This document shows positions 2,375-58,146 of a DNA stretch of 64,000 nt, piece by piece. This DNA is from Eledone cirrhosa (lineage: Eukaryota): the NCBI GenBank assembly GCA_964016885.1, contig OZ024740.1, positions 97,588,001 through 97,652,000 of the forward strand, read 5' to 3'. A program made the position numbers and the translations under genes. Positions within the stretch are counted from its first letter, which is position 1; each line of letters starts with the position of its first letter. The notes beneath the pieces are model-generated. The model was not told where the DNA came from. It made no database searches and was given only the letters and a program-made list of their open reading frames with translations.

Positions 2375-2439
<65 letters not shown>

Positions 2440-2723
2440 CACAGTTCAAGAGTAAAAAATCTTAAAGAGAGAGATGGAGATAGGAGAGGAGAGATTTGTG
2501 AATTAGTTAGAAGCCAAAGCGTAAAGGCATGTGCTCAATGTGCAATATGCATTAGAAAGCAGCTAGGTGGGTGGGTTCATGCAGAAGTTAGGTGTGCAGA
2601 GCTGGAAATATTCATTAGTTAAGCAAAACAAGACCACAAATTTCACAAGGAAGACACTATTAAAAGATTGTCAACATATTTTAGTTTGATGTAAGGAATG
2701 TAGAGAATAATACTAATAATATT

Positions 2724-3042
2724 AATAATAATTGTTTCTACTTTTGGCACAAGGCCAGCAATTACCCAGTGTATTACTGGTACGTTATTTTATCGACCCC
2801 ATAAGGATGAAAGGCAAAGTTAACCTCGGCAGGATTTGAACTCAGAATAATATTAATAATAATTGTTTCTACTTTAGGCACAAGGCCAGCAATTACCCAG
2901 TGCATTACTGGTACTTTATTTTATCGACCCCGTAAGGATGAAAGGCAAAGTCAACCTCGGCGGGATTTGAACTCAGATCGTAAAGGGACGTAACTATGCT
3001 GGAAAGCATGGCGTCCGACCCTCTACCGATACTGCCAATCCA
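2724..3042 (-). mobile_element. tRNA-derived SINE family A: one partial copy (2724-2847) and one near-full copy (2856-3042)
   Basis: Reverse complement has A-box TGGCAGTATCGGT, B-box GAGTTCAAATCC, body TTGCCTTTCATCCTTACGGGGTCGATAAAATAAAGTACCAG (Meta-domain-like) and an (ATT)n tail. A further fragment lies at ~1372-1470. Confidence 0.85.
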
Positions 3043-7818: not shown

Positions 7819-8531
7819 CGTGTGTGTGTGTATATGTATTTGTCTCTTCTCATTGAATCAATGCTCATCGATATGATGCTGTATGTCCATGGTTCTCATC
7901 AGAAGAACAATGACATCAATAGTTCCCGAATCCTTGTCCAACAATTTCATGGAAGCTGGTTATCAAACCACAACCTTCAATATAAGGATAAAGCCAGTGA
8001 TCACAAAATTGGTTATCACAAAAGTAACTAAGATGTCCCATTTACACTGGTTTTAAAATCACAATGATCCTCATAGAGAGACAGCCAACCAAGGTAAAGA
8101 ACCTCTGTTTACTCATTTGGTTTTCTCACAATACTGGACTGTCATTCACACTTCTGAGATCTTCCACCCTTTGAGAGGTTTTGTTTTTTCTTTCTACAGG
8201 TTGGAAAAAGCATCACCATACTCAGAAAGCAAGGTTTGTGGGGTTGCTGGTTTAATCTCATCTAACATGACTATGTGACAGGTTGTACCGTGTAACATGT
8301 TGTTACCAGTAGCAATCATGAAGGGCCTAGCTATATATATATATATATTCATCAAGTTTAATATAGATATGGCTTCTAAGGACTAGAACTGTTTCATTCA
8401 AATAAAAATATCAGGAAAGCAGGATGTCATTGTAAAATAGTTGTATTTAAGTTTTCTAGTGGTTGGAGATGGTGATGGATTTTAATAGAGGCTACCCCTG
8501 ATTAAAACAGGGACTCATATATATATATATA

Positions 8532-10680: not shown

Positions 10681-12169
10681 CCGGAGTGTAACATCAAGTT
10701 GAACTTATTATTAATACTTATATATTTATATGTATATGTTAATATTTATATAAATATATATATTTCTGTAGGTGACACAAAAAAAAGCCTCCAGTCCACA
10801 CTGTAAAGTGGTCATGTACATGTCATGATAAAAAGCACCCAGCATGTAATGTAAATGTGGTTGATGTTAGGAAGAGCATCTAGCCCTAGAAACCGAACCA
10901 AAACGAGCCCTGTATGAGCAAGACATGATCATCGGACCCGGCTTGTCTCACAATGGTGCACCTCGTTGTCTAAACCATGCTAGCATGGAAAAATTAATGT
11001 TAAATGATGATAATGGTGATGATATATTATATTAACAATCTAATTTACAAAGGTGGTGTGTATATGAACTCTTTCAAAATAAGTTAGCTTAAAGGTAATC
11101 GCTTCAAAGCAGATTTTTTTTTTTGCCTAGGAAAAATACTTTAGAATGTTAAGCATATCAAGCCCTAGAGACAATAAACAGTAGACAGCATTGCTTATGG
11201 GAATGAAACACACACCCGCAAAAGTGGCTATGCATTCAGTTACACCAAAAATACTGACAAATTTTCAAGTTATTTTAGGTCTTATCTATATATATCGATA
11301 CATACATATTATTTGAATGACTACAATCACATATATCACTATATTTATGTTCAGTTAAATTCTGTCTTGAGTCTAGGGTTTCATCAAGCTGGGGCGTATT
11401 CCAGTTTCATATGCAGTAAGCAACTTTGAATACAAGACTTCTATCTGAACAGAATGCCAATCCATCACAAGGTCAACACCAAGAAGTTGCTGGTTGTATT
11501 CATTTTCAGCTGAGTTTACTGAAGCAATGTGAAATGAAATGAATTTCTAAAGTACACAACATGCTACTAAGCTCATCATTGTAATGTGTGAAAGAAAGCC
11601 ATGACATTACAATGATGAGCTTAGGCTGGACACTTCAGTTATATTTATGTTCTAACATTAAGAAGAAAACAAAAAAACTCAAGATGAAACTCTTAAGAAG
11701 TAACACTATATTATCAATTATTTGCATTAGTGACTTTTATCTGAACCAAATCAGTGAAAAGCTTACTAACCACATGGTCAATGTTTCATAAACAAATTCC
11801 TTCCATTGTTCACCAAATCATTTCTCTCCTGCTCACCTTGCTTCTATGTTTATGTTTACTACTTCAATCCATTACATGTTCCCTCTACTAAATTATAGAA
11901 GTACACAATTGGATTTATATATAACTTAATTACAAACATGAGTGGTAAAATGATGCAAATTAAAACATCCATTTCATGATACTACTATAAATAGGAATTT
12001 ATATAAGTCTCTTGATTACATATTTCCTTATGGCTGTTTGATGATATACATGTCTTCTGATGAAAGCCCAACAAGGCATGAAAATGGTTAAAGGTATTTA
12101 TCATATCTTCCAATTTACAGAGAAAAACATACATTTCATATGTTTACATGTCTACATATATATATATAA

Positions 12170-16009: not shown

Positions 16010-17270
16010 AATGTGACATCAATTGGTGTTGGTGTAGTAACTAAGAATCCTGGTTGTGACTCTTTACATGGATTGCAGAGACCCCATAAATTTGTACAGT
16101 TCTCATGAGACACTCTTAAGAGATAACTGAGGAGATTAAGACGTGGGAGAGATTCAAATGACATCTAAATGTAATCTTATTGGATTATACATACTTCATA
16201 TGCTTAAATGTAGATTCCCCAATAAAGCTATTGACCTATATCTCAAAACCAGTCTTTCATTAGCCCACGATTGCAATGGACACTCCCATAAGGATTTAAA
16301 ATACACCATTAGCAACCTTGGATTTAAGATCAGAGTAGAAACAAACTTCTCTAGGGCAAACTTTCTTGGTGTTAACTTAGACCTATTTACAGGAGCACAT
16401 AACCTGCCACCCACTTACAGTTTTAATAATCTAGCACCTAATATTAGCTGTAGAATCTTGAGCTTATCATCCATTAGTGAGATGTTTGAGAAGGCATTCA
16501 TACTACAATAAGGTCCTCTGAGATAGGGGGTTCATAGAAGAGATCAAGTGCATATCAATTAGATTTCAGTATAAAAACAGAAATAGAAAAGAGAAAATAA
16601 TCTGGTCCCCCTACTCCAATTCACATAACAAATATAGGTAAGGGATTCTTCCTCCTAATTGATTAACACTTTTCCCCTTCAAAATAGGTACAGTAAGATA
16701 TCCACTTTTCCCCTTCAAAATAGGTACAGTAAGATATACTGCTGCTCAGTAAGTGTATCTTATTCTTCCCAACCATCTATGAAATCCAAAATGATTGCAA
16801 AGAACAAACCAGATGTAACTTTAGGATGGTCTTGTGAGATAAAAGATGACGTGCATTACAACAAAATTGTAAAGTAAAGTCCATCTTTGAGACAATTGTT
16901 AAATATACCAACACTAATGAGCCAGAAACCAGTGAAAAACAAGTGGGCATTTTGCAGGACCAATTTAAACAAAGGTTCTACTCACACCTCTCCTTATTCA
17001 GTCATCCCAATCTGAAAACCAACACTTTGCTGGCAAAAAGAGCCTGGAAGTTAAAAGAAAATGTTGTACAGCATGAAATAACATGGCAGGAGTTTAACAG
17101 CCTATGCCATATATCAATGGATCTAAGAATTGCCCACTATGCCTAATTAATTACATAGAATTTTTCAAGGATATAAATTCACCAAACAGGTATCTAAATT
17201 GTAAGGATGAGCATTTTAGACACATTTTCCATATCAAAAGCCAAATCCTTTTCAGCCTGAAATACCCACA
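16010..17270 (+). mobile_element. Penelope-like element remnant (RT C-terminus + GIY-YIG), degenerate
   Basis: ORF fragments LGFKIRVETNFSRANFLGVNLDL (RT), FKQRFYSHLSLF...TLLAKRAWKLKE and PYINGSKNCPLCL (GIY-YIG). A ~35-bp internal tandem duplication lies at ~16668-16737. Confidence 0.85.
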
Positions 17271-24300: not shown

Positions 24301-24898
24301 AGAACTATATGGAAAGAAAGAAATACAGGCAACCAAAACATATAACATGACTTGTTCAATTGTTGAATACTATTTAAGGAGAATAAATTCATCATTAAGG
24401 ACTTCAGTAGAGTTGAAATATGAGTGATATATTGTAGGTCATGACATGATTTGAACTTTACCATTGTAATAGCTTACCTGAATATTTTTTCCAATATAAG
24501 TGACTGTTTGCATGAGTGAAAACATCAACATATTCGGGGAAAGTGAAAGTTATAGTGATCGAAATTTTGCCAACGAAAGTTGTTATCAGCATCAAGTGTG
24601 CAGAATTAGACATGATAATAGTTCTGATTTTGACAAGTAAAGTTTGATAATGACATACATTGTTGCATCTTGAACATCATAACAAATAAATTAAAAAGTA
24701 GGTGAATTTGATCACAACTAAATGGATAGTGTATGGGTACACGTTTATATATATATACATATATATGTGTTTATATATGTGTTATACATACATGCACATA
24801 TATATATACACATACATGTATATATACATGTATATATACATGTATAATTATTTTAAAATTTGTGTATGTATGCATATGTGTTTGTGTGTATATATAAT

Positions 24899-25612
24899 GG
24901 AGGCACATGGCTTAGTGGTTAGAGCATTGGCCTTGCAATCGAAAGGTTGTGAGTTCAATTCTCAGACCGGGTGATGTGTGTTTCCTTGAGCAAGACACTT
25001 TATTTCACATTGCTCCAGTTTACTCAGCTGTAGAAATGAGATGATAGGGACTGAGGTCCTTATCATTCCACTGTAAAGTGGTCGTGCAGGTGCCGCGGCA
25101 AAAAAGCACCCAGCACTCACTGTAAATGAGGTTGGTGTTAGGAAGGGCATCCAGCTGTAGAAATCAAGCCAGCATCAGTTCCCGTCCCACCCTTGCAAGC
25201 AGGGAAAAAGCGGACGTAAAATGAAATGATGATGATGATGATGATTATATATATATATATATATGGAGGCACATGGCTTAGTGGTTAGAGCATTGGCCTT
25301 GCAATCAAAGGGTTGTGAGTTCAATTCTCAGACCGGGTGATGTGTGTTTCCTTGAGCAAGACACTTTATTTCACATTGCTCCAGTTTACTCAGCTGTAGA
25401 AATGAGATGATAGGGACTGGGGTCCATATCATTCCACTGCAAAGTGGTCGTGCAGGTGCCATGGCAAAAAAAGCACCCACCACTCACTGTAAATGAGGTT
25501 GGTGTTAGGAAGGGCATCCAGCTGTAGAAACCAAGCCAAAATCAGTTCCCGTCCCACCCTTGCAAGCAGGGAAAAAGCGGATGTAAAATGAAATGATGAT
25601 GAAAATGATGAT
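24899..25612 (+). mobile_element. Two head-to-tail full-length SINE family B copies (24899-25244, 25265-25612)
   Basis: Near-identical ~345-bp units with tRNA-like A/B boxes, CORE-like CCTTGAGCAAGACACTT and an RTE-type (ATG)n tail, separated by a short (TA)n. Confidence 0.92.
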
Positions 25613-26281
25613 AGGTACACCAAGGAGAAAAAAGTGAAATAAGTCTGAAATAAAAGTACCAGTGAAATGGTAGACAAATCAATGGAAATAAGTTTGTTTA
25701 CTACAGCATTTCTGAAATATTCAAATAAGTCTCATTATATAAAAAAACATACATAAAAAAGATAAAAAATAAAATAATAAAACGACATAAAGCATCAGAA
25801 TGATTAACACATAGTTTTTTGGTGGTGAAGTATTCAACTGTTTTCTCATCACCTCACCGGATCTTGACGTATATATCAACTTTAATGATTTATATCCTCC
25901 CCTACTGTCTGATACTCTTAATAATATCACTGCCAAATGATACTTTGGTATATATTTACTATCATTCATTATCACATTGTTTTGCTTTTTTTTTGTTTGT
26001 TTGTTTTTTTTGTTTTAGTTTTAGTTCTTTATTTTCCATCATTTTTCACTTTTTATTTATGCATTTTTGTATTCTTTATATTTTTATTCTTATCATATTT
26101 TATATTTTATTCTTTTCTTGCATTGTTACTTAAAGAGAAATAAATATTTACTGAATCTATCAACATCGATGCCGGATCTTGTAGGTTTATTTTATTTATT
26201 TATTTTTTATTTTATTTTATTATTGTTTTATTTTTAATTATTTATTTATTTTTTGCATAACTTATTTTAGTTTATTTTCAG

Positions 26282-36573: not shown

Positions 36574-37051
36574 TATATACATGCTACTGTACGTCTGTAT
36601 ACATATATGTATGTACGTATACATACATACTTACATATATATATATATAGATAGATATATATGGGGGAGGGGTGCATATGAGATGTTGATATTTGAAAAC
36701 TTTAAGACCATTATTCAATTTAATACTCTATAATTATGGAAAAGTGGAGTCTAGATTATTATTATAAGGATCCACTGCCATATATAACTAAATTTCTACG
36801 GTTTCAATAGCAATTGAGAATATGTATGTACAAATAGATATATCATTACCTTATCATCATGTAGGGCGTCTAATAATTAATTGATTCACGTTGTCAACAC
36901 TTCTGCTGTTATTCAATTTAGATAGACAGATTAGTGTGTGTGCACTATAGTTAGGTGCAAACTAATATTGCCAGAGCGGTCAGTAAATAATCAATCTCTA
37001 ATGTGTGTTTACTAAAATCACTTGTTACTAAGTTTCATATAAAGTGCTAAT

Positions 37052-37392
37052 ATCATCATCATCATCATTTAATTTTACGTCCGCTTCTCCCTGCTTGCAA
37101 GGGTGGGACGGGAACTGATGCTGGCTTGATTTCTACAGCTGGATGCACTTCCTAACACCAACCTCATTTACAATGAGTGCTGGGTGCTTTTTTGCCGTGG
37201 CACCTCCACGACCACTTTGCAGTGGAATGATATGGATCCCAGTCCCTATCATCGCATTTCTACAGCTGAGTAAACTGGAGCAATGTGAAATAAAGTATCT
37301 TGCTCAAAGAAACAACACATCACCCGGTCTGAGAATTGAACTCACAACCTTTCAATTGCAAGGCCAATGCTCTAACCACTAAGCCATGCTTC
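37052..37392 (-). mobile_element. SINE family B full-length copy
   Basis: Reverse complement of the 24899 unit. Confidence 0.9.
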
Positions 37393-37720
37393 ATATAACT
37401 GATCTGGACTCAGAATGTCACTAATTGTCTAACATATGCAAACATGCAAAATAGGCATTGAACGATGAAGATATACATACATATATTGGAAAATATGTGA
37501 GATCCTTAGTACAGTTAGGTATATTTGAAAAAAAGGAAAAGAATGACTTCACTTGTAGTTCTAAACAAATTGATTTAATTTTATAATATTATAATATTAT
37601 GAGTTGGTAGATTTAGTAAGTTCTTTGTTAACTTCAGTGGGAAGATGTTTAAAGATTCCTGGTTAGCTTTCCTGGAGAACTTTCTTGCATTCGTCAATGG
37701 CAATTGTCAAACTGATATAT

Positions 37721-38063
37721 GGAGGCACATAGCTTAGTGGTTAGAGCTTTGGCCTTGCAATCGAAAGGTTGTGAGTTCAATTCTCAGACTGGGTGATGTG
37801 TTGTTTCCTTGAGCAAGACACTTTATTTCACATTGCTCCAGTTTACTCATTTGTAGAAATGAGATGATAGGACTGGGATCCCTATCATTCCACTGCAAAG
37901 TGGTCGTGAGGTGCCACGGCAAAAAAGCACCCAGCACTCACTGTAAATGAGGTTGGTGTTAGGAAGGGCATCCAGCTGTAGAAATCAAGCCAGAATCAGT
38001 TCCCGTCCCACCCTTGCAGACAGGGAAAAGCGGACGTAAAATTATGATGATGATGATGATGAT
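37721..38063 (+). mobile_element. SINE family B full-length copy (inverted relative to the 37052-37392 copy)
   Basis: GGAGGCACATAGCTTAGTGG...GGAAAAGCGGACGTAAA...(ATG)n. Confidence 0.9.
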
Positions 38064-38329
38064 ATATATATATATGTATGTGTGTGTGAGTGTGTGTGTG
38101 TGTGTGTTTGGATCTAGCTGTCGAAATGGCCGGAGCTCAGCCGTCGGGGTCCTGACACTTTTCCTATATATATATTAACCCATATATATATATTAACCCA
38201 TGCTAGCGTGGAAGATGGATGTTAAACAAAAATGATGATGATGATATATATAAAACAAAATTGATGCAGTAAAAACATTTTATACCATTACTCACCAGTA
38301 CTCGATACTTGGGTTAGTAGAGTGTGGTA

Positions 38330-38441
38330 ATATGAAAGAGTCAGGACCCCGATTGTTGAGCTCTTGCTGTTTTAACAGCTAGTTCTGAACAAACTGTTGC
38401 AATGGCAAGCACTCATCAGTGGGGGTCCTGACTCTTTCATA
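38330..38441. repeat. Imperfect ~110-bp hairpin element (same family as 43224-43375 and 38110-38165)
   Basis: ATATGAAAGAGTCAGGACCCC ... GGGGTCCTGACTCTTTCATAT with a partly paired interior. Confidence 0.8.
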
Positions 38442-38619
38442 TATATATATATATATTAGAATTGGTGCTATGAAATAGCTATATATATATGAATGTATAT
38501 ATAGTGTATTTTGCAATACACTGTATGCTTAATTAAAAGCATTTCGAAGACCTTATGCTATTGTTTTAGAGTAGTGACAGACTCACTTACTTTAATTTTC
38601 AGCAAACAGGGGGAAATAA

Positions 38620-38663
38620 AGCTGACAAGGCTTTGTTTCGCATTATTGATGCTTATCAAAGCC
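38620..38663 (-). ncRNA. Type I hammerhead ribozyme, U3-A8 core variant
   Basis: Minus strand: GGCT-TTGATAA-GCAT(caata)ATGC-GAAAC-AAAGCCTT-GTC-AGCT. It has G10.1-C11.1 and a GUC triplet. Confidence 0.65.
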
Positions 38664-38839
38664 AACTACTCCTCCTGTTTGCTGAAATCATGGATGTTTG
38701 GTTCTTATAGAATTCTAGTATATATATATAGCTAATATATATATAGCTATTTCAGAGCACCAATTCTAATTTTCAATTTCTGCTTGACCGGCAGTTCCTG
38801 ATTATTTACTAGAATTCTATAAGAACCAAACATCCATGA

Positions 38840-38931
38840 TTTCAGCAAACAGGAGGTGTAGTTGGCTTTGATAAGCATCAATAAATGTGAAACAAGGCCT
38901 TGTCAGCTTTATCTCCCCCTGTTTGCTGAAA
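38840..38931 (+). ncRNA. Type I hammerhead ribozyme, U3-A8 core variant, with extended stem I
   Basis: Core 38864-38908: GGCT-TTGATAA-GCAT(caataa)ATGT-GAAAC-AAGGCCTT-GTC-AGCT, enclosed by the 14-bp helix TTTCAGCAAACAGG/CCTGTTTGCTGAAA. Confidence 0.65.
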
Positions 38932-39045
38932 ATTAAAGTAAGTGAGTCTGTCACTACTCTAAAACAATAGCATAAGGTCTTCAAAATGCTTCGAAATGCT
39001 TTTAATTAAGCATACAGTGTATTGCAAAATACAATATATATATAC

Positions 39046-39076
<31 letters not shown>

Positions 39077-39077
39077 C

Positions 39078-40520
39078 GTTATTGAAAAGTCTTTTAGCTT
39101 CCAGACCTTTCTTCTACCAACCTTCCTGTATGTCTCATTCCATCTCTTGCTTACTGAGATATCACTAACAACTAACCTATGCTGTGGCGTACATTCTTCC
39201 CCAGGGTATGCCTTGGTATTTGACAACATCTGCCTGTCCCGCTGTAAGAAGGTTTGCCAATGTTCTGCGATGGGAAGATCAGAGGCGTGCGGTGTTCCAC
39301 ATTGCAAAGCAGTGTGTCAATGCAAATCAGGATGTTGTTGGAGATAAATGTGTCCGGAATGATGCCAGTGTACTTAGTGTCATGAATGATCAGAAAAAGG
39401 AGGCCTGGAAATGTCATTGTGAGAGACTGATGAATGTGGAGAATGAATGGGAGAGAGAGAAATTACCCTCAGTAGATCCGACAGAGGGACCAGCTATTGA
39501 GATTGACGAATATAGGGTCCAAGAGGTGATTAAGGAGATGAAAAATGGTAAGGCTGCTTGTCCGTCGGGGATAGTTGGTGAGATGCTGAAGGCATCAAGG
39601 GACGTAGGCACTAAACTGGTTGCACGCATCATCAATCAGGCTATATATGGTGGTGTCATATGCAAAGACTGGTGCAACAGTATTCTCATAAATAGCTACA
39701 AAGGTAAAGGGGATGCTCTGGAGAGGAGCAATTATAGGAGTATAAAACTGATGAAAGTGGCAGAAAGGATATTAGCACAACTAATTAGAGAAAGGTTCAA
39801 ACTAGATGAGATGCAGTTTTGTTTTGTGCCTGGGAAAAGTACAACAGATGCCCTCTTCTCGGTGAGACAATTACAAGAGAGGTTCTTAGAGAAGAATAAG
39901 CCACTATATTTAGCTTTTGTTGACCGAGAGAAGGCCTTTGATAGGATACCCCGATCTGTCATCTGGTGGTCCCTAATGAAACTAGGTGTTGAGGAATGGC
40001 TTGTGAGGACAGTGCAAACTTTGTACAGCGGTGCTGTCAGTAAAGTCAGGGTAGGAATGGAGTTTTGCGAGGAATTCCAGATACAAGGTTCGGTTTGCAT
40101 CCTGCTCTTGTTCATTATAGTCCCCCAAGCCATAACAGAGGTGTTTAAGACTGGCTGTCCATGGGAACTTCTCTATGCTGATGATCTGCTTCTTATAGCA
40201 GAATAAGTAGAGGAGTTAGAGAATAAATTCTGGCTATGGAAACAGCAGTTGGAAGCAAGAGGACTAAGAGTGAACCTAGCTAAGACAAAAGTGTTGATGA
40301 GTAGAAAAAAGGACAAAACTCTGATTCCATCAGGGAAATGGCCATGTTCGATATGCAGAAAAGGAACTGGCATAAATTCTATAAAATGCACACAATGCAG
40401 ATCCTGGGTACACAATAGATGTAGTGGGTTAGTATGCAAACTAACAGGTAGGGAGAAATATGTATGCAGTAGATGTACAGGGAAAAGCGGACGTAAAATG
40501 ATGATGATGATGATGATGAT
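39078..40520 (+). mobile_element. RTE LINE copy with 5' inversion and internal deletion (pseudogenised RT)
   Basis: RT motifs KAACPSG, FVDREKAFD and LLYADDL; PHD-like WPCSICRK..CTQCRSWVH.RC; (ATG)n tail. 39078-~39246 is the AP-endonuclease end (PGEECTPQHRLVV...WKLKD) on the minus strand. Confidence 0.93.
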
Positions 40521-40596
40521 TCCGGGTTTAATCGAGGGTAACCACAGTAAGTAGGGTACTCAATACATAGCAGAGTATATATGTTTAATATAGAAA

Positions 40597-40647
40597 AGCT
40601 TCTACAGGACTAGAACTGTTTCATGTGTGAGAAATCATCAGGAAGCT
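40597..40647 (-). ncRNA. Hammerhead-like motif (type I, weak stem II)
   Basis: Minus strand: AGCTTC-CTGATGA-tttctcacacat-GAAAC-AG(ttctagtc)CT-GTA-GAAGCT. The mirror copy at 44154-44204(+) has CTGATTA, and a degenerate copy lies at 8372-8420. Confidence 0.5.
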
Positions 40648-41142
40648 GACTGTGCAAGTAAATATGATGGTTTTTCTATATTTTCTGGTGGTAGGAGAGG
40701 GTGAGGATTGGGATGGGTGGAGGCCAATGGTTGAGGGGTTTAAAGAAAAAGGAATTCTTTAAAGCTATAATTTATATTTAGAGTGAGAAAGGCAAAATAA
40801 TATTATAAATAAGTTCAGATTGGAGTACCAATCCTTATTTTTAAGTTTCTCTTAAGCTAACAATGCCTATATTTCAGGTGTCTACAGGATGGGTGGAGTT
40901 CATTGGTAGATATGTTTAAAGAAAGAGGAATTCTTTAAATGTTAAGTCTTTAAAACTTTCTTTAGAGTGACAAAGGCTGAAAGAATTCTATAAACAAGTT
41001 CAGATTTGGGGTGCCTCTCCTTATTGTTAAGTTTCTTTTAATCTATGTTTCAGGTGTCTACAAGCACATTTAAACACACACGCACGCACGCACACAGACA
41101 CAGACATATATATACATATATACACATATATATACATATATA

Positions 41143-41240
<98 letters not shown>

Positions 41241-41284
41241 TATATATATATACACATTACATATAGATATATATACACACATAC

Positions 41285-41315
<31 letters not shown>

Positions 41316-41655
41316 CTTTTACTCCCGCACTCTCGCAAAAAACCACACTCTTATACCCATATATGTACACACACTCACACACACATATATATGTACTTAT
41401 ATATATATGCTTTTGAGCAACAATTACCCTCGTTGGTTGATTAGCCAATAAGACGATGAAATTAGTCAATAAGACGATACATTACAAAACATGTTTGGCA
41501 GTGATCACCACGGCCAGCGACACCCCTTGAACTTTTTTATTCACAAGCTACGCATATATGTCAGAGACGCAGACTTAAAACATTCTGTTGTTAGTCACTG
41601 CATGTCTAACGGATACTTAAATATCTTGTATAATCTTCAATACATGTTCAGATTG

Positions 41656-41712
<57 letters not shown>

Positions 41713-41938
41713 TCTAATTTATTTAAAAAAACAAAACACTCGACAAAATATGTATATATGTATATATGTATATATGTATGTATATATGTATATATATGTA
41801 TGAATATATGTATGTGTGTATGTGTATATGTGTGTATGCGTGTATATATTTGTACATATATATATATATGTATATATATATATAAAATAAAGTAATTAAG
41901 TCAAATATTTAAAATTTGGCTTCGTTTATTAAAGATGT

Positions 41939-41993
41939 ACTGCTATATATATTTCAGTGACAGCCATCATTGGCTGTGACCTCTTCAGGCAGT
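41939..41993 (-). ncRNA. Type I hammerhead ribozyme motif
   Basis: Minus strand: ACTGC-CTGAAGA-GGTCACAGCCA(atga)TGGCTGTCACT-GAAAT-ATAT-ATA-GCAGT. Perfect 5-bp stem I, palindromic stem III, AUA triplet. Confidence 0.65.
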
Positions 41994-42228
41994 CCGAATT
42001 GGTGTGGTAGAGACAGGTACACATGTTGTTAAAGTGTTTTACTCCATCAATACTCCGATATGTCCAGCTCCTTGTTGGGTTGTTATTTCTCTGAGGAACT
42101 AGAATCATATCATATGATTCCAGTTCTTCAGAGAAATAACAGCCCATCCAGGAGCTGGACATATCGGAGTATTGATGGAGTAAAACACTTTAACAACATG
42201 TGTACCTGTCTCTACCACACCAATTCGG

Positions 42229-42285
42229 ACTTCCTGAAGAGGTTACAGCCAATGATGGCTGTCACTGAAATATATATATAGCAGT
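42229..42285 (+). ncRNA. Type I hammerhead ribozyme motif (mirror copy, one stem I mismatch)
   Basis: ACTTC-CTGAAGA-GGTTACAGCCA(atga)TGGCTGTCACT-GAAAT-ATATAT-ATA-GCAGT. Confidence 0.55.
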
Positions 42286-42436
42286 ACATCTTTAATAAAC
42301 GAAGCCAAATTTTAAACATTTGATTATTTATTTTATTTTATTTTACATTACTCCGGAGTAACCAAACCAACCTGCGCACTTCGTCGAATGCTCCATATCT
42401 GCATACTGAGGTGTTGATATACAACCAACATATACT

Positions 42437-42473
<37 letters not shown>

Positions 42474-42608
42474 AGGTGAGTTTTATTGTAGTACAATAAA
42501 GCAATGCAGATATCGGATAAGAAGCACTCTACAGTTTGTAGGACTGGAGTATACATAATATATAAGAACAAAAGATGGTTAAAAGAGTTCCATGTATTTT
42601 ATTATGTA

Positions 42609-42675
42609 TTTTATTATGCGCATTTCAAAAACAAATATCATCATGCAATAATATTTGTGTTTTCATCAGATAAAA
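42609..42675 (-). ncRNA. Type I hammerhead ribozyme motif
   Basis: Exact reverse complement of 42697-42763. Confidence 0.7.
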
Positions 42676-42696
42676 CCTTCATATCATGTCTTCCTG

Positions 42697-42763
42697 TTTT
42701 ATCTGATGAAAACACAAATATTATTGCATGATGATATTTGTTTTTGAAATGCGCATAATAAAA
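42697..42763 (+). ncRNA. Type I hammerhead ribozyme motif with intact core
   Basis: TTTTAT-CTGATGA-AAACACAAATATTATT(gcat)GATGATATTTGTTTTT-GAAAT-GCGC-ATA-ATAAAA. It has a 6-bp stem I, long stem II, palindromic stem III ATGCGCAT and an AUA triplet. Confidence 0.7.
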
Positions 42764-42795
42764 TATATGGAACTCTTTTAACCATCTATTGTTCT

Positions 42796-42862
<67 letters not shown>

Positions 42863-42863
<1 letters not shown>

Positions 42864-43225
42864 GTTCATTATAGTCCTCCAAGCCATAACAGACTAGTAT
42901 AAAACTGGCTCTTCATCGGAACTTCTCTATGTTGACGATATGGCTCTTAGACCAGAATCAGTAGAGGAGCTACAGAATAAATTCTGGCTATGGAAATAGC
43001 AAAAGTGTTGATGAGTAGAAAAACGTCGAAACACTGATTCCGTCACGTTCGATATGCAGAAAAGGAACTGGCATAAATTCTATAAAATGCACACAATGCA
43101 GATATTGGGTACACAATAGATGTAGTGGGATAGCAGACAAACTAACAGGTAGGGAGAAATACGTATGCAGTAGATATACAGGGAAATTAGACAGTAGAAG
43201 TCACATTGATAGACACATTTTTCAA
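42863..43225 (+). mobile_element. RTE internal fragment (YADD region to PHD-like finger), degenerate
   Basis: Aligns to 9610-10020 with deletions. Confidence 0.85.
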
Positions 43226-43314
43226 TCCCGACGGCAGAGCTCAAGCCGTTTCGATGGCTATTTCTAGACTCCAGAAATAGCCATCGAAACGGCTTGAGCT
43301 CTGCCGTCGGGATT
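43224..43314. repeat. Perfect 42-bp-arm palindrome with 7-nt loop
   Basis: AATCCCGACGGCAGAGCTCAAGCCGTTTCGATGGCTATTTCT agactcc AGAAATAGCCATCGAAACGGCTTGAGCTCTGCCGTCGGGATT. Confidence 0.97.
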
Positions 43315-43408
43315 AAACATTTTCCTATTACCCACTCTACTACCCAGAGTATTGAGTACTCTGGTGCGTTATGGTCCATCTGGTTCCTTACCACACCTCC
43401 TTCGTTTT

Positions 43409-43444
<36 letters not shown>

Positions 43445-43456
<12 letters not shown>

Positions 43457-43539
43457 AGTACATATATATGTGTGTGTGAGTGTGTGTACATATATGGGTT
43501 TAAGAGTGTGGTTTTTTGCGGGAGTGTGGGAGTAAAAGA

Positions 43540-43592
<53 letters not shown>

Positions 43593-45780
43593 TATGTGTG
43601 TATATATATCTATATGTATGTGTATATATATATGTGTGTGTGTGTATATATATATGCGTATATATGTATATATATGTGTATATATGTATATATATGTCTG
43701 TGTCTGTGTGCGTGCGTGCGTGTGTGTTTAAATGTGCTTGTAGACACCTGAAACATAGATTAAAAGAAACATAACAATAAGGAGAGGCACCCCAAATCTG
43801 AACTTGTTTATAGAATTCTTTCAGCCTTTGTCACTCTAAAGAAAGTTTTAAAGACTTAACATTTAAAGAATTCCTCTTTCTTTAAACACATCTACCAATG
43901 AACTCCACCCATCCTGTAGACACCTGAAATATAGGCATTGTTAGCTTAAGAGAAACTTAAAAATAAGGATTGGTACTCCAATCTGAACTTGTTTATAATA
44001 TTCTTTTGCCTTTCTCACTCTAAATATAAATTATAGCTTTAAAGAATTCCTTTTTCTTTAAACCCCTCAACCATTGGCCTCCACCCATCCCAATCCTCAC
44101 CCTCTCCTACCACCAGAAAATATAGAAAAACCATCATATTTAATTGCACAGTCAGCTTCCTGATTATTTCTCACACATGAAACAGTTCTAGTCCTGTAGA
44201 AGCTTTTCTATATTAAACATATATACTCTGCTATGTATTGAGTACCTTACTTACTGTCGTTACCCTCGATTAAACCCGGAATCATCATCATCATCATCAT
44301 CATTTTACGTCCGCTTTTCCCTGTACATCTACTGCATACATATTTCTCCCTAGCTGTTATTTGCGTGCTATCGCACTACATCTCTTGTGTACCCAGGATC
44401 TGCATTGTGTGCATTTTATAGAATTTATGCCAGTTCCTTTTCTGCATATCGAACATGGCCATTTCCCTGACGGAATCAGAGTTTTGTCCCCTTTTCTACT
44501 CATCAACACTTTTGTCATAGCTAGGTTCACTCTTAGTCCTCTTGCTTCCAACTGCTGTTTCCCTAGCCAGAATTTATTCTCTAGCTCCTCTACTTATTCT
44601 GCTATAAGAAGCAGATCATCAGCATAGAGAAGTTCCCATGGACAGCCAGTCTTAAACACCTTTGTTATGGCTTGGGGGACTATAATGAACAAGAGCAGGT
44701 TGCAAACCGAACCTTGTATCTGGAATTCCTCACAAAACTCCATTCCTACCCTGACTTTACTGACAGCACCTCTGTACAAAGTTTGCACTGTCCTCACAAG
44801 CCATTCCTCAACACCTAGTTTCATTAGGGACCACCAGATGACAGATCGGGGTATCCTATCAAAGGCCTTTTCTCGGTCAACAAAAGCTAAATATAGTGGC
44901 TTATTCTTCTCTAAGAACCTCTCTTGTAATTGTCTCACCAAGAAGAGGGCATCTGTTGTACTTTTCCCAGGCACAAAACCCAACTGCATCTCATCTAGTT
45001 TGAACCTTTCTCTAATTAGTTGTGCTAATATCCTTTCTGCCACTTTCATCAGTTTTATACTCCTATAATTGCTCCTCTCCAGAGCATCCCCTTTACCTTT
45101 GTAGCTATTTATGAGAATACTGTTGCACCAGTCTTTGCATATGACACCACCATATATAGCCTGATTGATGATGCGTGCAACCAGTTTAGTGCCTACGTCC
45201 CTTGATGCCTTCAGCATCTCACCAACTATCCCCGACGGACAAGCAGCCTTACCATTTTTCATTTCCTTAATCACCTCTTGGACCCTATATTCGTCAATCT
45301 CAATAGCTGGTCCCTCTGTCGGATCTACTGAGGGTAATTTCTCTCTCTCCCATTCATTCTCCACATTCATCAGTCTCTCACAATGACATTTCCAGGCCTC
45401 CTTTTTCTGATCATTCATGACACTAAGTACACTGGCATCATTCCGGACACATTTATCTCCAACAACATCCTGATTTGCATTGACACACTGCTTTGCAATG
45501 TGGAACACCGCACGCCTCTGAGCTTCGCATCGCAGAACATTGGCAAACCTTCTTACAGCGGGACAGGCAGATGTTGTCAAATACCAAGGCATACCCTGGG
45601 GAAGAATGTACGCCACAGCATAGGTTAGTTGTTAGTGATATCTCAGTAAGCAAGAGATGGAATGAGACATACAGGAAGGTTGGGAGAAGAAAGGTCTGGA
45701 AGCTAAAAGACTTTTCAATAACTTATATATATATATATATATATAAATATATATATATATTGTATTTTACGATACACTGT
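43445..45780. repeat. Right arm of the ~2.4-kb inverted duplication (contains the mirrored RTE at 44281-45720, minus strand)
   Basis: Reverse complement of 39014-41408. Confidence 0.95.
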
Positions 45781-46256
45781 TTGCACGTTTACTCATTGTT
45801 TCGCTTTCGAATCTTCCTCCTGTATTGCGTCGTTTTATCATCAAAATATTTTTCTCGTTTTGGTAAGTTATATTGTTTATTTATATATGATTTTTTAAAT
45901 TTATATTAACATTTTTTTTTCAGTTCGTTATAACATGCTTATAATATTGGTTGTATCATATTTACTTCTATATTTGTCCATATTATTTTTCGTTTTATGT
46001 TAGATTATTTTATTATTATTATGTTAGATTATTTGTATGTAATATTTAATTTTTATTAATTCAACTATAACAATTATTATGTAAAATATATTTATTTAAT
46101 ATTGATTGTTTTTTATAGTTGTTTACATTAAAAGTCTGAAAACATTTATAAAATAACGATTATATAATCTAATTACTTTACAACGATAATTTATTATTCA
46201 TATATATCATGTTTAACACTACAGTTATTACAAGCGTTGCCATAAAGAAATATTAA

Positions 46257-46703
46257 ACTAGACCTGAAAAATGCGCAGGCTCAAAAGAGCCACAGAATGT
46301 TATAATAAACCTTCAAAAGTGTGGGACTAGTATTGTTGTTCAACAATATTGTAATCATTATCTATCGTACACTCTGTGGCATCCTTTTATTAAAAAAAAG
46401 AGACTCATAACGAACTCAAGACGGCACGATAATTATTTAAGTGAATTTATAATATAGAATTCGGTTGAAGTGCATTTCGTATTAATCATTACTAAACATC
46501 TAATATGAGATATTGAACATTAACTTAAATAATTATCATGTCGTCTTGAGTTCGTTATGAGTCTCTTTTTTATAAGAGGATGCCACAGAGTGTACGATAG
46601 ATAATGATTACAATATTTTTTAGCAACAACTCTAGTCCCTCACTTTTGAAGGTATTATAACATTATGTGGCTCTTTTGAGCTTGCGCATTTTTCAGGTCT
46701 AGT
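46257..46703. repeat. Foldback P-D: ~185-bp arms (46257-46442 / 46523-46703), 80-nt spacer, no hammerhead seen
   Basis: ACTAGACCTGAAAAATGCGCA...ATTTAAGT / ACTTAAAT...TGCGCATTTTTCAGGTCTAGT. Confidence 0.93.
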
Positions 46704-48714
46704 ATATATATATTTGCTGAGGGTGGTTTAAATTGTTGTCATATCACATCTAAAGCCCTATTTTGAATTACACTGGTTAACTACTACCCTTTCAAAGACA
46801 TGCTCTGTGCAAATGAATATCCCCACATATACATTATTTGCAAATATCTATATAAACAACTAATTTATTTGGCTTCCATATTGCTGGATAAAACCCTGAA
46901 ATACTAATATTTGGTAACATCAAATAGTTACTGAGATTAATGTGACATCACTACAGCTTAAAATACCCATAATTAGACTTTTATATGTATATCACACATA
47001 CAAATATTGTATAAGCTTCCATAAGCATTCTTTTCTGTATCACACTATTTACTGAAACTTCATACAAGCCCATCAAGCATACACAAATATGCAAATTACA
47101 ATCCTTAAATATATTTTATTTTCAAAAATCCATATAATATATCAGTTGAGTTTGCCTCAGCACCAAATGATCTTGTAACTGAACATGGATAAAAATCTGG
47201 AAATTGCTAGTACTCAGCATTCTCATATGGTTACAACTAACCATGACATGATCACAGCTTAAAATATCCACAGCGAGATGCATATATATTTATAATGCAT
47301 AGACATATTGAATATTTTTCCATATATGTCCTTATTTTCATGCTGCAATAGTGCTAGTGCTAAATATATATATATGCATACATATATAATGTTATATGCA
47401 TACTACATACACATACACATATGTATGCACATTTAGTGTATATGTGATTTATATTCATTTATATTCCTTGTATGTATGTATACATGTATTTATGTGTATA
47501 TATATATATGTGTTTGTGTGTGTATATATATATATATATAAATTATTAATATTCTGTCAAAGAATATGTTTTCAATAAATTCCTCAACAAAAACAGTAAG
47601 CTTTTACAATGAAAGACATCTAGTGAATTTTGTGTGTCAGAAATAGACTAGCATCTCTTTGATTTAAAGACAGACTTTCATTAAATTGCCAAAGAAGCAG
47701 CTTCAAATTGAAGTCTTAAAATGATTAATTTATTTTAATTTCTTTAGTGTTGCATTACAAGAGACCATTATGTTGTTTTAACTAGTAGGTGAGAATCAAA
47801 TGAAAGACAGAAATGAAATTCCATATCATTTAAAGAATATTTAAAGAATATCTTCAAATCATCTTGAAATATTTTCAGCAGTGCTATCAAGAAACAATTT
47901 ATAATGATACAAATTATTTACAGGAACAAAAAAATGAATATTTAAGTTCACATGTATCTATAAATGAATGTTTAGCTGAGTGCATGTATACATTTATGTA
48001 TAAAGTTCGATTAAATTCAAATTATACTCCTGGAAGACCAGGTTTCTATTCCAAGTTTATTCATTGCTTTACTTGTCAGATTTGAACAAATGTTCTGCTA
48101 CTGATCATCAAGTACACTAGCACTACATATTTCATTGTTGGATCATCCGCAACTTAACCAACAACCACATTTTAGCGTGACTCAGTTGTGTATAGAGGGA
48201 GGATGAATATCTAAGCAGGGCAAAAGCAATACCTGCCGATAAGGTGGATGAACAGAACAAAGAGTCAATGAATATCAGTCAAACCAATACATGGAGTGGT
48301 GTCTTATTAAGACTTTTAAGCCTAATATTCCTGACACTCTTATCAACTACGGTACATCATTGTCTTCTTCAGGAAAAAAATGAAATTGCTTACCATTTAA
48401 TACACGTGTGATTTAGGCAGGTGAAGTTCTTGATAAGTAAGAGGAGCAGCCAAAGTGGTTTAAGTCAGTCTAGGCTAGGCGTATCACTATATTCTTTTTA
48501 CAGACATTTAGATCCCACAGTGAGGAAAGGTGCACCCACAGGTACTGACTGTTGATAAGTGATATTATTCTTTCATTGATGTTCCCAACAGACATGTGCC
48601 ATTCATTCCTTCTATTTGTGTATTGTATACTGGTTTGCACCTCTTAAATATGTGTAATATCAAGAAATTAATACGATTTATTATTGCTTTTTAGTTATTT
48701 TCATATTTGCATAT

Positions 48715-49473: not shown

Positions 49474-49531
49474 ATACTATGATCATTTCAATGACTGGGT
49501 TCAGTATGAATCCGGTGACATCATCAGGTAT
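49474..49531 (-). ncRNA. Type I hammerhead ribozyme motif
   Basis: Minus strand: ATAC-CTGATGA-tgtcaccggattcatactgaacccagtcatt-GAAAT-GATC-ATA-GTAT, with palindromic stem III ATGATCAT. Confidence 0.6.
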
Positions 49532-51350
49532 TCAAAATATAACAAAGGAATATAATAGACAAAATCCATGGGGCTGAAAATCAGAGACATGAGGGCGACC
49601 GAATATTTAGCAGCTTCTACCTCGGTCATCCGCCCTCAAGTGTTGATTATTAAGTCTACTTATGATCATCTGGTGAAGGGGTGCAGGCTTATAGTGTACT
49701 ACTACCTCCCTGTAAAAGAAAGAGGCCAGCGTTGAGGTCATGCCACAATCAAGCTGATCATGCGTGCTAGAAAATGCCGCGAAAAAAATGATTTTTCAAA
49801 GAACATATATCTTCAACAAAGACATATATAGTGGGCGTATGTATGGTATAATGTATGGACAGAAATTTCGATTAACAATTAGAAACGTTAACCTTATGTT
49901 TAGAGTTAGAAGATGAAATTAGAAAAATAAGGTTTTAGGTTTAAGTTAAGCGCTAGTAAAAGGAGGCATAATAAAGCTAATAGTTATGATTAAGCTTAGA
50001 ATTTAAAGGTACTATTTGGCGGGCAAAACCGGTGGCGCGGCGGGTTCCCAGTCTGACAGAGCCCAGGGCTAAGCAGCCATTCCGAGTAATTTCATTTACC
50101 GAAAGAAGGAAAATTTTATTTTTCCAAGCACTCAAGGAAGGCTGATCAACCCGAGCACCTGGCCTGCAGTCGGGAAAGCCGCCACATCTGTCGGAATCAT
50201 CGCGTGTACCAAACGATTATTACTTATTCACACCCATGATGTGAGGTTGAAAGTGGTAAAATCCGATGAAATGTGCAAATAGACTATACTTAGTCCCCAG
50301 TTAGTCTGGGTTATATGTAGTGTGGTTCTTGGGTGGGTAGGGGGAGTGAATAAAGATAAACAGATAAGGGTACAGAGAGTAATATTCTAGGGTCGTGTGC
50401 TAATGAGTACAATGATAAGTATATAATGAGAGTAAAGCGAGTAAATAAATACATAAATAAAACTAAGTAAAATATATAAATAAAATGCAGTCATAACTAG
50501 GGTGGTGATGTAGGGAGTTAAAAGGAAGTATATAAAAACATATCGAATAAATCAAAATACAGGGGAAATACAATATAGATCAAGGTGCAGTTGCAGAATA
50601 CAAGGTTATACATATAGATATAGAGGATGGAAGAGTTGGAATGCTATCAGGTGATACCTAGTGTATGTTCGAGTCTTAATTTTCAATGTGAATCCCAAAG
50701 GCCCTGAAGTATAAGATAGAGAATTCAGTCCATACAATACATGTTATAGTAGAATACGTAGATTCTTTTAGGAATCTATGAGGTCTGTCGGAGTCTGAAT
50801 ATTCCCGACAGGGAAGCAGCAATGCATGGTCCAGGTGGGCGGCAGACAAAGCTCAAAGCAACCAAAATCTGAATGCTGTATAGTTAGTCTTATGTTGGCG
50901 ATAGCTGAACACTGGAGTCAGTGCCACTGTTCATTATTACATCTGAAAGTGCTCGATATTTCCTGGAGCATTATTTATTTAGGTTTGTTGGTTCACCACT
51001 GGACAGAACTGATCATTCCGTGTGGTCAACCTCGATGTAATATTATGGAGAGCACTCAACGTAATGCAACACACCCGGCTTCGTTTGTGTAGTTGGTGGT
51101 GCATGTATGGAGTTAATTATTATAAAATAACAGGAGGCTAGACTGGTGTAAATCCTTGAAAGGTTTATTATACTATGATCATTTCAATGACCGGGTTCAG
51201 TATGAATCCGGTGACATAATCAGGTATTCAAAATATAACGAAGGAATATAATAGACAAAACCCATGGGGCTGAAAATCAGAGACATAAGGGCGGCTGAAC
51301 ATTTACCTGATTCTACCTCGGTCGGCCGCCCTCAAGTTTTGATTATTAAG

Positions 51351-52735: not shown

Positions 52736-53342
52736 ACACACACACATATATACACAAGTGTATGTGTCATCATTTAACTCCCATGTTCCTTGCTAGCAGT
52801 GGTGGTACAGGTCTTCACAAACTGAGTTACTACGCAGGTGACCTCACTGTTGAGATGGCTTGAGCTCTTAATTTTCCTTACATAGTGTCCCATGCTTTGT
52901 TGAGGGCATTTCGTTGTGACATCAGGACTAGGAGTATATTTAACACTACTGCAGGAGTGTCTTTAACACTACTGCAGAGTCCTCCAAGCCTTTTATTTTG
53001 CAAGCTTTCTACATATCAATGTTCTCCATATAACACTTTCTTTTGAGGAAATTACACTCCTAGCATATTGGTCTTTGAGGCTATAGCAGATTACATATGC
53101 CCATAGTGCCACGGACAGACATTAACAAAAAATCATGTGGCTGCAAGGCAAATTTCTTAAACACAGAAAGATGAGTTTAGCTAAAATATAATAATTAGAA
53201 TTATACCTCAAAATTTTATATTTCAAAATGAATTCAGTGTACATTCTCAAAACTGCTTCACAAAAATATAGCTTCATGTATTTTGTAAAATATTTATAAG
53301 CATATAAACATACAAACATATTTATTTATTTATATATATTAA

Positions 53343-53465
53343 AATTCATAAATTTTTATAAGTGTGTATGATATGGTAAGACAAGATTTCTAACAATATG
53401 AATTATCATAAAAATGTTCTGAAATGTTCTGAATTTATATATATATATATATATGTAGGTGTGTT

Positions 53466-53499
<34 letters not shown>

Positions 53500-53606
53500 C
53501 TTATTTATATTCATATATTCATGAATATTGAAAATTGTTTTCATAATTTATATTGTTAGAAATCCTGTCACCCCATATCATACATACTTATAAAAATTTA
53601 TGAATT
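53343..53606. repeat. MITE-like inverted repeat, ~64-bp arms
   Basis: AATTCATAAATTTTTATAAGTGTGTATGATATGG...CTAACAATATGAATTAT / ATAATTTATATTGTTAG...CCATATCATACATACTTATAAAAATTTATGAATT. Confidence 0.8.
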
Positions 53607-55119
53607 GAAATGTATAATTGTTGGTAGCACTAAGACATCATTTAAGCATAATAGGTGTGTATGAAAACATCTATAAATAAATATAATGTGGTTATATACA
53701 ATAAATATATGGGTAGCCTCGCAGCTGAAAAAAAAATGTTTTCATAATGAATAACATTTTTTTTATTTTTCTTAATTTTTCTTGGTGAAAATATTACCGA
53801 GTTGCCAGAATGTTCTGAGAATGCCAGACAACGCTGTTTTAAGATTTGTTAATCTTACATCAGTGACACTCACTCACAATGTACTGTCATGAAATGGACT
53901 ATAGTCTATATAGAATTTTATATGAGGAACACTTGCTGAAGCTGCTCATTTGCATATGATAAAAGCAGTAAACATCACCAGTAATGTTCATTTGCATATA
54001 GTTTGAGTCGGGTTGGTTATATTTAATTGATGGCAGTGTTAAGACAGCGTTTAAACATAAAAGAAGTGTATATGAAAACATATATATACATGTGTATATG
54101 TTTTCATATACATCTGTTGGCTGACAGCGGCCATGCAGATCATTAATGATTATGTACCCTACTGCAATGATGCCCTCTGATGTAGTGGATTCAACCAGGA
54201 TATAGAATCCCTCAGACCCCCTAAAGAAGTATGTAAATACTGCTGGAGCAGAAAACATAGTCATGTGCTGTAACCTTGACCACAATGCAGATGTGGTAAC
54301 ACAACTCACTCAGATATATTTCCGGATGATCTGAAGGTACATTCCGGGACAATGTAACTTCCAATAAATACTCAAGAGAAAACTGTAAAGCTACCATACT
54401 CTGCAATGTCTAACATAACATAGAGTATTGCCACCTACAATAGGGACAACCTCAACAGACACAGACCCCACGGTTCTTGCAATTTGTGCTTGGCTGAGAC
54501 ACTCTGCATTTTGTTCAATAAGGCCATATTAATAAATAAACGAGCCAAGCTGGTGATTATATATATATACCACAACAAAAATCATACCTATGTCTCAAAT
54601 TAACATATGATCTTGGATGCTATTCATCCATACTTACCAACTACTAGAATCCTGAACCACTTGGCATCTAAGCTCATGCAGTAACTTATATTTGGACAAA
54701 GCCCACCCTACACACTTGCTCCTCCACTTCCACTAGGACCCCACCTGTGGACTCCCATTTCTCCACTCCTCACTTCTTGTATCTACTTAATATTTATTAT
54801 GACACATCAACGAACCACTACTTGTAAGTTTTCTTTTTCCATACTATATTTCATATGTGTATGTGTGCAGACAATGTTACCACCTTCTCTCCTTTGGTGT
54901 TTGTATGGATTAATAAATGTAATGTGTACATATGTGTGTATTGGTATGATGTACACGGGCATGTATGTGTGTATACATAGTTATTATGCCTAAAATAGTG
55001 TACATGCGCAATACAAGTGTGTGCAGATGTACATATGTGTGTATTTGTATGATGTATACAGGCACGATGTGTGTATGCATATGTGTATGTGAGTGTGTTT
55101 GTATGCTTGGACGCACGTC

Positions 55120-57904: not shown

Positions 57905-57905
<1 letters not shown>

Positions 57906-58146
57906 AGTAATAACACAACAGTTAGTTCACCATACCAAGAACAATTATTTCACCTTATGTGGATCTTCAGTTCGGACAGGTAATGGTTATACGGAATAGG
58001 AAGAACAACCGTTTGAACGCGCATGCGCATAAACGGTCACTTAACCCAAGCGATAGAAAACCATGGGCAGAAGGTATAAGGGAGATAACTGCATAAGGTG
58101 AAACAATTCTTCCTGGTATGGTGAACTAACTGTTGTGTTACTACTT
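57905..58146. repeat. MITE-like element with ~55-bp terminal inverted repeats
   Basis: AAGTAATAACACAACAGTTAGTTCACCATACCA... / ...TGGTATGGTGAACTAACTGTTGTGTTACTACTT. Confidence 0.8.

Follow-up and report, generated by a model that had tools for sequence, protein, structure and literature searches.

Insertions of Penelope-like elements (PLEs) have been described as carrying inverted pseudo-long terminal repeats (pLTRs), mostly head-to-head and with an optional tail on one of them (PMC3846280), and as ending in an inverted, 5'-truncated copy with the tail often at one end (PMC8557442). Truncated PLEs were also reported to hold hammerhead ribozyme (HHR) motifs in pairs, 100-700 bp apart and on opposite strands; the same account states that metazoan PLE motifs need dimers and cleave weakly, and that a U3-A8 variant of the core is known from Schistosoma PLEs (PMC4209133). 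The protein of an anole PLE, a predicted dimer, acts in vitro on both strands of an AT-rich target, which it cuts and extends, using two internal start sites that bound the tail, and HHR cleavage is not required (PMC11167929). The Hydra clade of PLEs was defined by a CxCX5C linker, the lack of a CCHH motif, a C-terminal endonuclease (EN), DKT and RWK motifs and insertion in (TA)n, and the supplement to that work lists the 2507-bp element Hydra-1_Obim, in (TA)n (PMC8557442). Finally, retrozymes without long terminal repeats (non-LTR retrozymes) have been argued to be non-autonomous PLE derivatives (bioRxiv 10.64898/2026.07.22.740005). These accounts, each taken from part of its source, are compared here with a cluster of HHR-bearing foldbacks in a 64,000-nt stretch of the Eledone cirrhosa genome (hereafter the window; GenBank assembly GCA_964016885.1, contig OZ024740.1, positions 97,588,001 to 97,652,000). 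The locus shows a type of structure that was already known, here in families that are new but belong to a described clade. Each foldback is very probably a pair of 5'-truncated PLE pLTR ends set head-to-head in (TA)n, likely by one insertion event in which both strands were nicked and reverse-transcribed, with the HHRs as passengers and one further pair, D, mirrored at a later time.

Self-comparison of the window revealed three small foldbacks, A, B and C, which are mutually unrelated in sequence, and five further short ones. A strict HHR descriptor (type I order, stems I-III, and a core of CUGANGA or its U3-A8 variant together with GAAA and UH) found six motifs in the window and none in each of 60 dinucleotide shuffles. 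All three foldbacks contain a pair of intact type I motifs (Table 1), of which the left-arm motif lies on the minus strand and the right-arm motif on the plus strand, with the cut sites facing outward. The A motifs carry the U3-A8 core, and single mismatches are present in stem III of the minus-strand A motif and in stem I of the plus-strand B motif. The initial annotation had reported such pairs in three unrelated foldbacks, and this was confirmed, as were its plus-strand cut positions (after 38904, 42280 and 42757). It had counted eight motifs from four families: the six in A, B and C are intact, and the fourth pair, D, is decayed, with stem II broken. Its foldback limits left out the one-sided tails, with which A begins at 38455, B runs to about 42439 and C begins at about 42470. 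A fifth HHR family, E, which the initial annotation had overlooked, is present as foldbacks whose arms end inside stem II; longer copies elsewhere have a long stem II and mostly a U3-A8-like core, and the family very often forms foldbacks of ~ 100 nt. The motifs are identified as hammerheads because they fit the descriptor, because unrelated stems pair in five families, because compensatory changes in stem I are seen between subfamilies of A and between subfamilies of D, and because of their position in the pLTR. As judged from sequence, the motifs of A, B and C are type I hammerhead motifs, with self-cleavage as a prediction.

The foldbacks are ends of abundant repeat families. Exact motif copies numbered 332 for A, 972 for B, 22,077 for C and 12,149 for D across the genome, while the reversed-pattern controls gave none. 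Family C pLTRs lie downstream of an open reading frame (ORF) with reverse transcriptase (RT) and GIY-YIG regions (loci L121, L294 and L297), and the full unit, pLTR-tail-5' untranslated region-ORF, was recovered in L211, L212/L213 and L297, where the tail proved to be the beginning of the 5' untranslated region of the full element. Family B lies downstream of RT and EN pieces (L124 and L125), and family D downstream of an EN piece only (L108/L123). The CxCX5C linker, a C-terminal EN and the absence of CCHH between GIY and YIG are features of both C and B, and the linker is present for D in L123. A DKT motif was found in the N terminus of the family C ORF, and family C insertions are flanked by (TA)n; DKT was not seen for B or D, whose N termini were not recovered. 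A separate DKT reading on the antisense strand of the family C HHR was set aside as chance. A homologue search among the longer proteins gave two matches at 32% identity with Hydra-like motifs, and a Protein Data Bank sequence search gave nothing relevant. On its motifs, family C is the pLTR end of a Hydra-clade PLE with RT and GIY-YIG, and families B and D are assigned, less firmly than C, as pLTR ends of Hydra-clade PLEs. The window also holds, at 16140-16508 (+), the decayed remnant of an ORF that is similar to the RT region of this type of PLE.

Family A is of a different kind. It consists of a non-coding tandem unit of 319 nt, each with a type I HHR (the 319-nt period was read in L021, L027 and L003), in low-GC arrays of three to four units, and no ORF was found beside the arrays L130 and L131. 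Its sequence fits a non-coding tandem (non-LTR) retrozyme, a class with units of 170-400 nt, and family A would likely have been moved in trans by PLE machinery. Another probable retrozyme family was observed in L289 (G000:C11:15000001-15010000), where seven tandem HHR-like motifs, repeated every 482-490 nt or so, occupy positions 456-3366.

The arrangement of the window was next compared with that of copies elsewhere in the genome. For each family the first 100 places listed were surveyed: of the neighbours lying within 1 kb, 48 were head-to-head, 10 tandem and none tail-to-tail, and within 7 kb the counts were 65, 14 and 4, respectively. Head-to-head pairs occur across the genome, and the constant polarity noted in the initial annotation, and its view that 5'-truncated ends from PLE pLTRs are joined head-to-head, are supported. 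A total of 202 distinct loci were then mapped (the window's own locus, signature duplicates and two no-match loci being excluded): 83 were simple head-to-head foldbacks, 9 complex, 1 tail-to-tail and 109 ran in a single direction. In every family the 3' ends fall into two discrete classes, short and tailed, and 71 of the 72 foldbacks with both ends scorable combined one short arm with one tailed arm. Family E, with 18 foldbacks found, followed this one-tail rule in 16/16 scorable cases, giving 87/88 over five families that include the non-coding retrozyme, and foldbacks A, B and C of the window conform to it. Foldbacks of the same layout with kilobase arms carrying ORFs were seen in L121, L294 and L295; since the same foldback occurs with arms bearing RT and EN reading frames, sizes form a continuum, with the small foldbacks at its lower end. 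An origin as miniature inverted-repeat transposable elements or other DNA transposons was rejected on account of the unequal ends, the varying junctions and the continuation of arms into RT/EN reading frames. The flanks are (TA)n of variable length, a setting that would mask any target-site duplication.

The divergence between arms of one locus is roughly half of that between arms of different loci (1.9 vs 3.9% for A, 4.3 vs 6.6% for B, 2.0 vs 4.6% for C and 5.4 vs 10.2% for D), and the arms have private changes. At the 5' side, 39 of 89 family C pieces begin at one site, 123 nt upstream of the cut site, and 35 of 85 family B pieces begin 166 nt upstream of theirs, a figure for which coverage is biased by the B query starting there. 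None of these C and B pieces begins at the predicted cut site. In the mutually unrelated families B and C, the fixed 5' end has the same short local sequence (window 42110-42112 for B), which we take to be an initiator-like word, and short re-copies of the fixed end are often present at the junctions of these two families. These ends would mark the transcription start, and the template would have been uncleaved. The distance of the HHRs from the short end, toward the inside of the arm, is 45-120 nt, and every arm that exceeds it therefore includes an HHR. Cores over 71 foldbacks were found on both strands in 31, on one strand in 32 and on neither in 8.

The favoured interpretation of these data, whose steps are modelled on the in vitro results for the anole element, is that a PLE protein nicks both DNA strands and reverse transcription is primed from each nick, on one strand at the tail-distal start site and on the other at the proximal start site. 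The two complementary DNAs (cDNAs) would run toward the 5' end of the RNA and be joined with a few nucleotides of overlap or filler. Two-strand priming leaves the 3' ends outward and the 5' ends together, which is the polarity observed. It could be, as a tentative extension that we hold to be somewhat doubtful, that a single protein dimer on a single RNA uses both internal starts at once, with the short start taken on one strand of the target and the tailed start on its partner, hence exactly one tail per inverted insertion; the coupling of the two starts is proposed because of the one-tail rule. In family C the tailed arm reaches further 5' than the short arm in none of 19 foldbacks, which suggests that the short arm runs to the 5' end of the transcript while the tailed arm trails and never passes it. 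If coupled priming were true, it would supply the missing second-strand step of PLEs and show that retrozymes integrate by that step.

The one-tail rule and the closeness of the arms would also be accounted for by self-priming, in which a single cDNA, or an antisense RNA, snaps back on itself to prime synthesis of its copy, after which the EN trims one arm at the border of pLTR and tail. Both parts have been proposed (self-priming in PMC3846280, EN-mediated resolution in PMC8557442), and the short re-copied 5' ends at some junctions would suit them. A cDNA snap-back, however, would copy the untailed arm from the tailed one, and a copy cannot extend further 5' than its template, whereas the untailed arm reaches further in 13/19 foldbacks of family C and 8/19 of family B, and several tailed arms contain the tail only. 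A version starting from antisense RNA could still apply. Also against self-priming, extension by the anole protein in vitro takes place on both strands, with starts at either border of the tail (PMC11167929). Self-priming in its two forms together is considered unlikely.

The D pair was examined as a possible primary foldback and rejected, since both of its arms are tailed, both copies carry the same lesion relative to family D and the arms run 1.5 kb past D through a LINE (long interspersed nuclear element) fragment at 39080-40490. We take this fragment to be RTE-like from its ORF; Pfam gave no family. Neither D copy passes the HHR descriptor, as stem II cannot form in either and the plus-strand copy is without G8. 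Divergence between the arms of the duplication is 1.4-1.7%, compared with 6% for a further copy of that LINE. Both breakpoints fall, with short microhomology, in a repeat, G, that is split in the window and continuous in L116, L304, L305 and L306, where its first piece is joined to the sequence from 45778 onward. Rather than a fourth pair of the same kind, as first annotated, D would have been mirrored by a later inversion that duplicated 2.4 kb at the breakpoint and split repeat G, after A had inserted. A third, older copy of family D lies at 8356-8481 (-). Further large inverted duplications of mixed repeats were observed in L300 (G000:C1:18485800-18494300), L270 and L276, and in L300 a whole family C foldback is duplicated, as D is in the window. 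Repeat G itself has 846 candidates genome-wide; it is AT-rich, with an inverted terminal copy, (TA)n flanks and a ~ 700-nt unpaired extension (L304-L309). No HHR was found in it, and one 8-kb stretch with tandem copies contained no PLE ORF.

An arm difference as low as that of the large duplication is possibly at the allelic level, and none of the short-read contigs searched spans the locus. Such features would be expected if the assembly were at fault, with the small palindromes arising as foldback chimeras, or the 2.4-kb duplication arising where two haplotypes were joined. The small arms, however, differ by 2-4.5% plus indels and have unequal, family-specific ends; short-read contigs of another sample show joints of left and right arms with different breakpoints; and both breakpoints of the large duplication map into the split repeat with short microhomology. 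An assembly artefact is considered very unlikely overall; for the large duplication a haplotype join could still apply.

The role of the mirrored motifs in RNA was explored by predicted folding. The initial annotation had envisaged a non-autonomous class of palindromic 'snap-back' ribozyme elements whose transcripts would switch between a double-stranded hairpin and a self-cleaving fold, or release defined hairpin RNAs. The mirror pairs are real and always face outward, both cores are kept in 31/71 foldbacks, and whole transcripts are predicted to fold as long hairpins (-167 to -391 kcal/mol) that could feed small-RNA pathways. However, the head-to-head polarity means that transcription of either strand passes through the antisense arm before the sense arm, and in a read-through transcript the antisense arm would be predicted to pair with the sense HHR and silence it. 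Forcing the HHR to form in the whole plus-strand transcript is predicted to cost 69 kcal/mol in A, 89 in B and 77 in C, compared with 10, 13 and 5 kcal/mol, respectively, for the sense arm alone. Each strand offers one sense HHR, while such motifs reportedly need tandem dimers (PMC4209133). Furthermore, junctions vary by locus, arms diverge privately and one or both cores have been lost in 40/71 foldbacks. The size continuum up to ORF-bearing arms likewise speaks against a separate element class, and opposite-strand pairs were already reported in 2014 (PMC4209133). A switch is very unlikely on these models, and the mirrored pairs are most likely insertion scars; hairpin RNA from read-through is possible.

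The frequency of such structures was gauged in 40 arbitrary 10-kb stretches, which contained 40 short foldbacks (~ 1 per 10 kb) and 35 relaxed hammerhead motifs, 7 of them from one array, in a scan run with no shuffle control. The window, at 64 kb, contains 8 short foldbacks and 9 relaxed motifs and is as a whole ordinary for this genome. Ends of other families were often present beside the fetched loci, as would be expected from a shared (TA)n target.

Several points weigh against the account given here. The sampled loci were not drawn at random but taken as best hits or by their order along the chromosomes, and locally the window holds 6 foldbacks in 8.4 kb where the maximum among the 40 stretches was 3 per 10 kb, although a 3.0-Gb genome offers about 300,000 such stretches. 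The Rfam check of the motifs was negative: a scan of the window gave no hammerhead among 111 matches, and in three focused scans the best match was HH9 on the plus-strand A motif at 13.7 bits (E 0.54; gathering threshold 52), with none on the plus-strand motifs of B and C. Pfam matched one of seven proteins, a GIY-YIG hit for family B that is below the cut-off (E 6.7e-4), and the clade was assigned by motifs and by-eye comparison with the published alignment and supplement text. The long C pair in L296 has a tail on each arm and an arm identity of only 86%. The tailed arm of family B reaches further 5' in 8/19 foldbacks, which weakens a strict leading and trailing model. In family A, six pieces begin 7-15 nt past the cut site and short-read contigs show joints 8-26 nt past it, so that cleaved RNA, or stalling at a long stem, may set some of the 5' ends of this family.

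Table 1. Coordinates of the foldbacks, their hammerhead ribozyme (HHR) motifs and associated repeats, as positions in the window.
Feature	Position	Strand	Description
Family E, single end	38106-38161	+	
Family E, older foldback	38262..38442		Left arm tailed
Foldback A, left arm	38455..38721	-	5'-truncated, ~50-nt tail; HHR 38620-38663 (-), U3-A8 core, predicted cut after 38624
Foldback A, right arm	38722..39033	+	Near-full monomer with untailed short end, then (TA)n; HHR 38864-38908 (+), predicted cut after 38904
Duplication, left arm (X)	39010..41408		End of A, (TA)n, LINE fragment 39080-40490 (taken to be RTE-like), D
Family D, left copy	40519..41400	-	3' region with tail, in left duplication arm; decayed HHR 40597-40647, stem II broken
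Repeat G, piece 1	41407..41655	+	Inverted relative to piece 2; marks rearrangement breakpoint
Foldback B, left arm	41885..42110	-	pLTR, short end, beginning at the fixed 5' end of family B; HHR 41937-41995 (-), predicted cut after 41944
Foldback B, right arm	42111..42439	+	pLTR, ~100-nt tail (about 42342-42439); HHR 42229-42285 (+), stem I mismatch, predicted cut after 42280
Foldback C, left arm	42470..42679	-	pLTR of Hydra-clade PLE, ~100-nt tail (about 42470-42570); HHR 42608-42676 (-), predicted cut after 42615
Foldback C, right arm	42680..42803	+	pLTR, short end; HHR 42695-42765 (+), predicted cut after 42757
Family E, foldback	43221..43410		Two HHR 3' halves cut off in stem II; tail on right arm only
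Family D, right copy	43446..44282	+	Duplicate of the same D copy, tailed; HHR 44154-44204, stem II broken, G8 lost
Duplication, right arm (X inverted)	43446..45784		1.4-1.7% substitutions vs left arm; ends in decayed last ~22 nt of A
Repeat G, piece 2	45778..46711		Has its own terminal foldback (46250-46711)

Other repeats were observed elsewhere in the window. A sixth HHR-like family, with a palindromic stem III, occurs as two direct copies in a 235-nt repeat at 49474-49531 (-) and 51170-51227 (-), the second without G8, and a single HHR-like motif of another family lies at 12046-12101 (+). Two old foldbacks with an arm identity of 70-76% are located at 53333-53616 and 57905-58146; the latter has a weak HHR-like motif and matches a repeat in eight fetched loci. 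Repeat copies resembling a tRNA-derived short interspersed nuclear element, with weak tRNA matches, were noted at 24889-25613, 37050-37397 and 37716-38065, and two of them form a chance inverted pair immediately left of the cluster.

The locus itself carries little weight, being a pile of ordinary Penelope-type insertion scars. Genome scans will keep meeting mirrored hammerheads in genomes of this type, and these should be annotated as PLE stumps. The young and abundant families are of more use, as a large natural record of PLE integration: the one-tail rule and the fixed 5' ends constrain any model of the unresolved second-strand step of PLEs, and the in vitro system already established would allow them to be tested.

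The initial annotation had taken the structure to be undescribed. In fact, inverted pLTRs, one-sided tails and opposite-strand HHR pairs have all been published (PMC3846280, PMC8557442, PMC4209133), and the head-to-head arrangement of stumps is already on record. The insertions of EN-bearing PLEs, in the relevant parts of PMC3846280 and the legend to Fig. 2 of PMC8557442, have the same head-to-head layout, 5' truncation, tail at one end, (TA)n target and HHR in the pLTR. The published tails are 30-40 nt long, whereas those found here are about 50 nt (A) or 60-100 nt (B, C and D), and the tail is optional or often one-sided in those papers, in contrast to 71/72 here. A literature search, with subscription papers mostly outside its coverage, gave no count of one-tail pairing and no treatment of these families, and the near-absolute one-tail rule seems sharper than the published accounts.

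Family C agrees with the Hydra clade, as set out in the passages used from PMC8557442, in its C-terminal GIY-YIG, CxCX5C linker, lack of CCHH, CxxC and CxH near the end, DKT, (TA)n and canonical HHR core, but reads RWI where the clade has RWK. It differs from Hydra-1_Obim, to which its N terminus is unlike, and a search of the supplement text with four short DNA motifs and a protein motif gave no matches, in lines whose wrapping could hide one. The dual minimal HHRs of Schistosoma (PMC4209133) share the close opposite-strand pairs from truncated PLEs, the U3-A8 core and a palindromic short helix III; the host and PLE clade are different, and the portion of that account drawn on here does not give polarity or tail. 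The Anolis Poseidon PLE studied in vitro (PMC11167929) likewise has two-strand cutting and extension, an AT-rich target, two internal starts bounding the tail and no need of HHR cleavage, but it belongs to another clade; in that study the start site did not differ between strands, and no coupling of one short with one long start was shown. Animal non-LTR retrozymes (PMC7229834; bioRxiv 10.64898/2026.07.22.740005) match family A in the non-coding unit, here of 319 nt, the type I HHR, the arrays of three to four units and the low GC. A word search of the text available for these two sources found no inverted, palindromic or head-to-head retrozymes described, whereas family A has inverted arms and a one-sided tail, like the autonomous PLEs.

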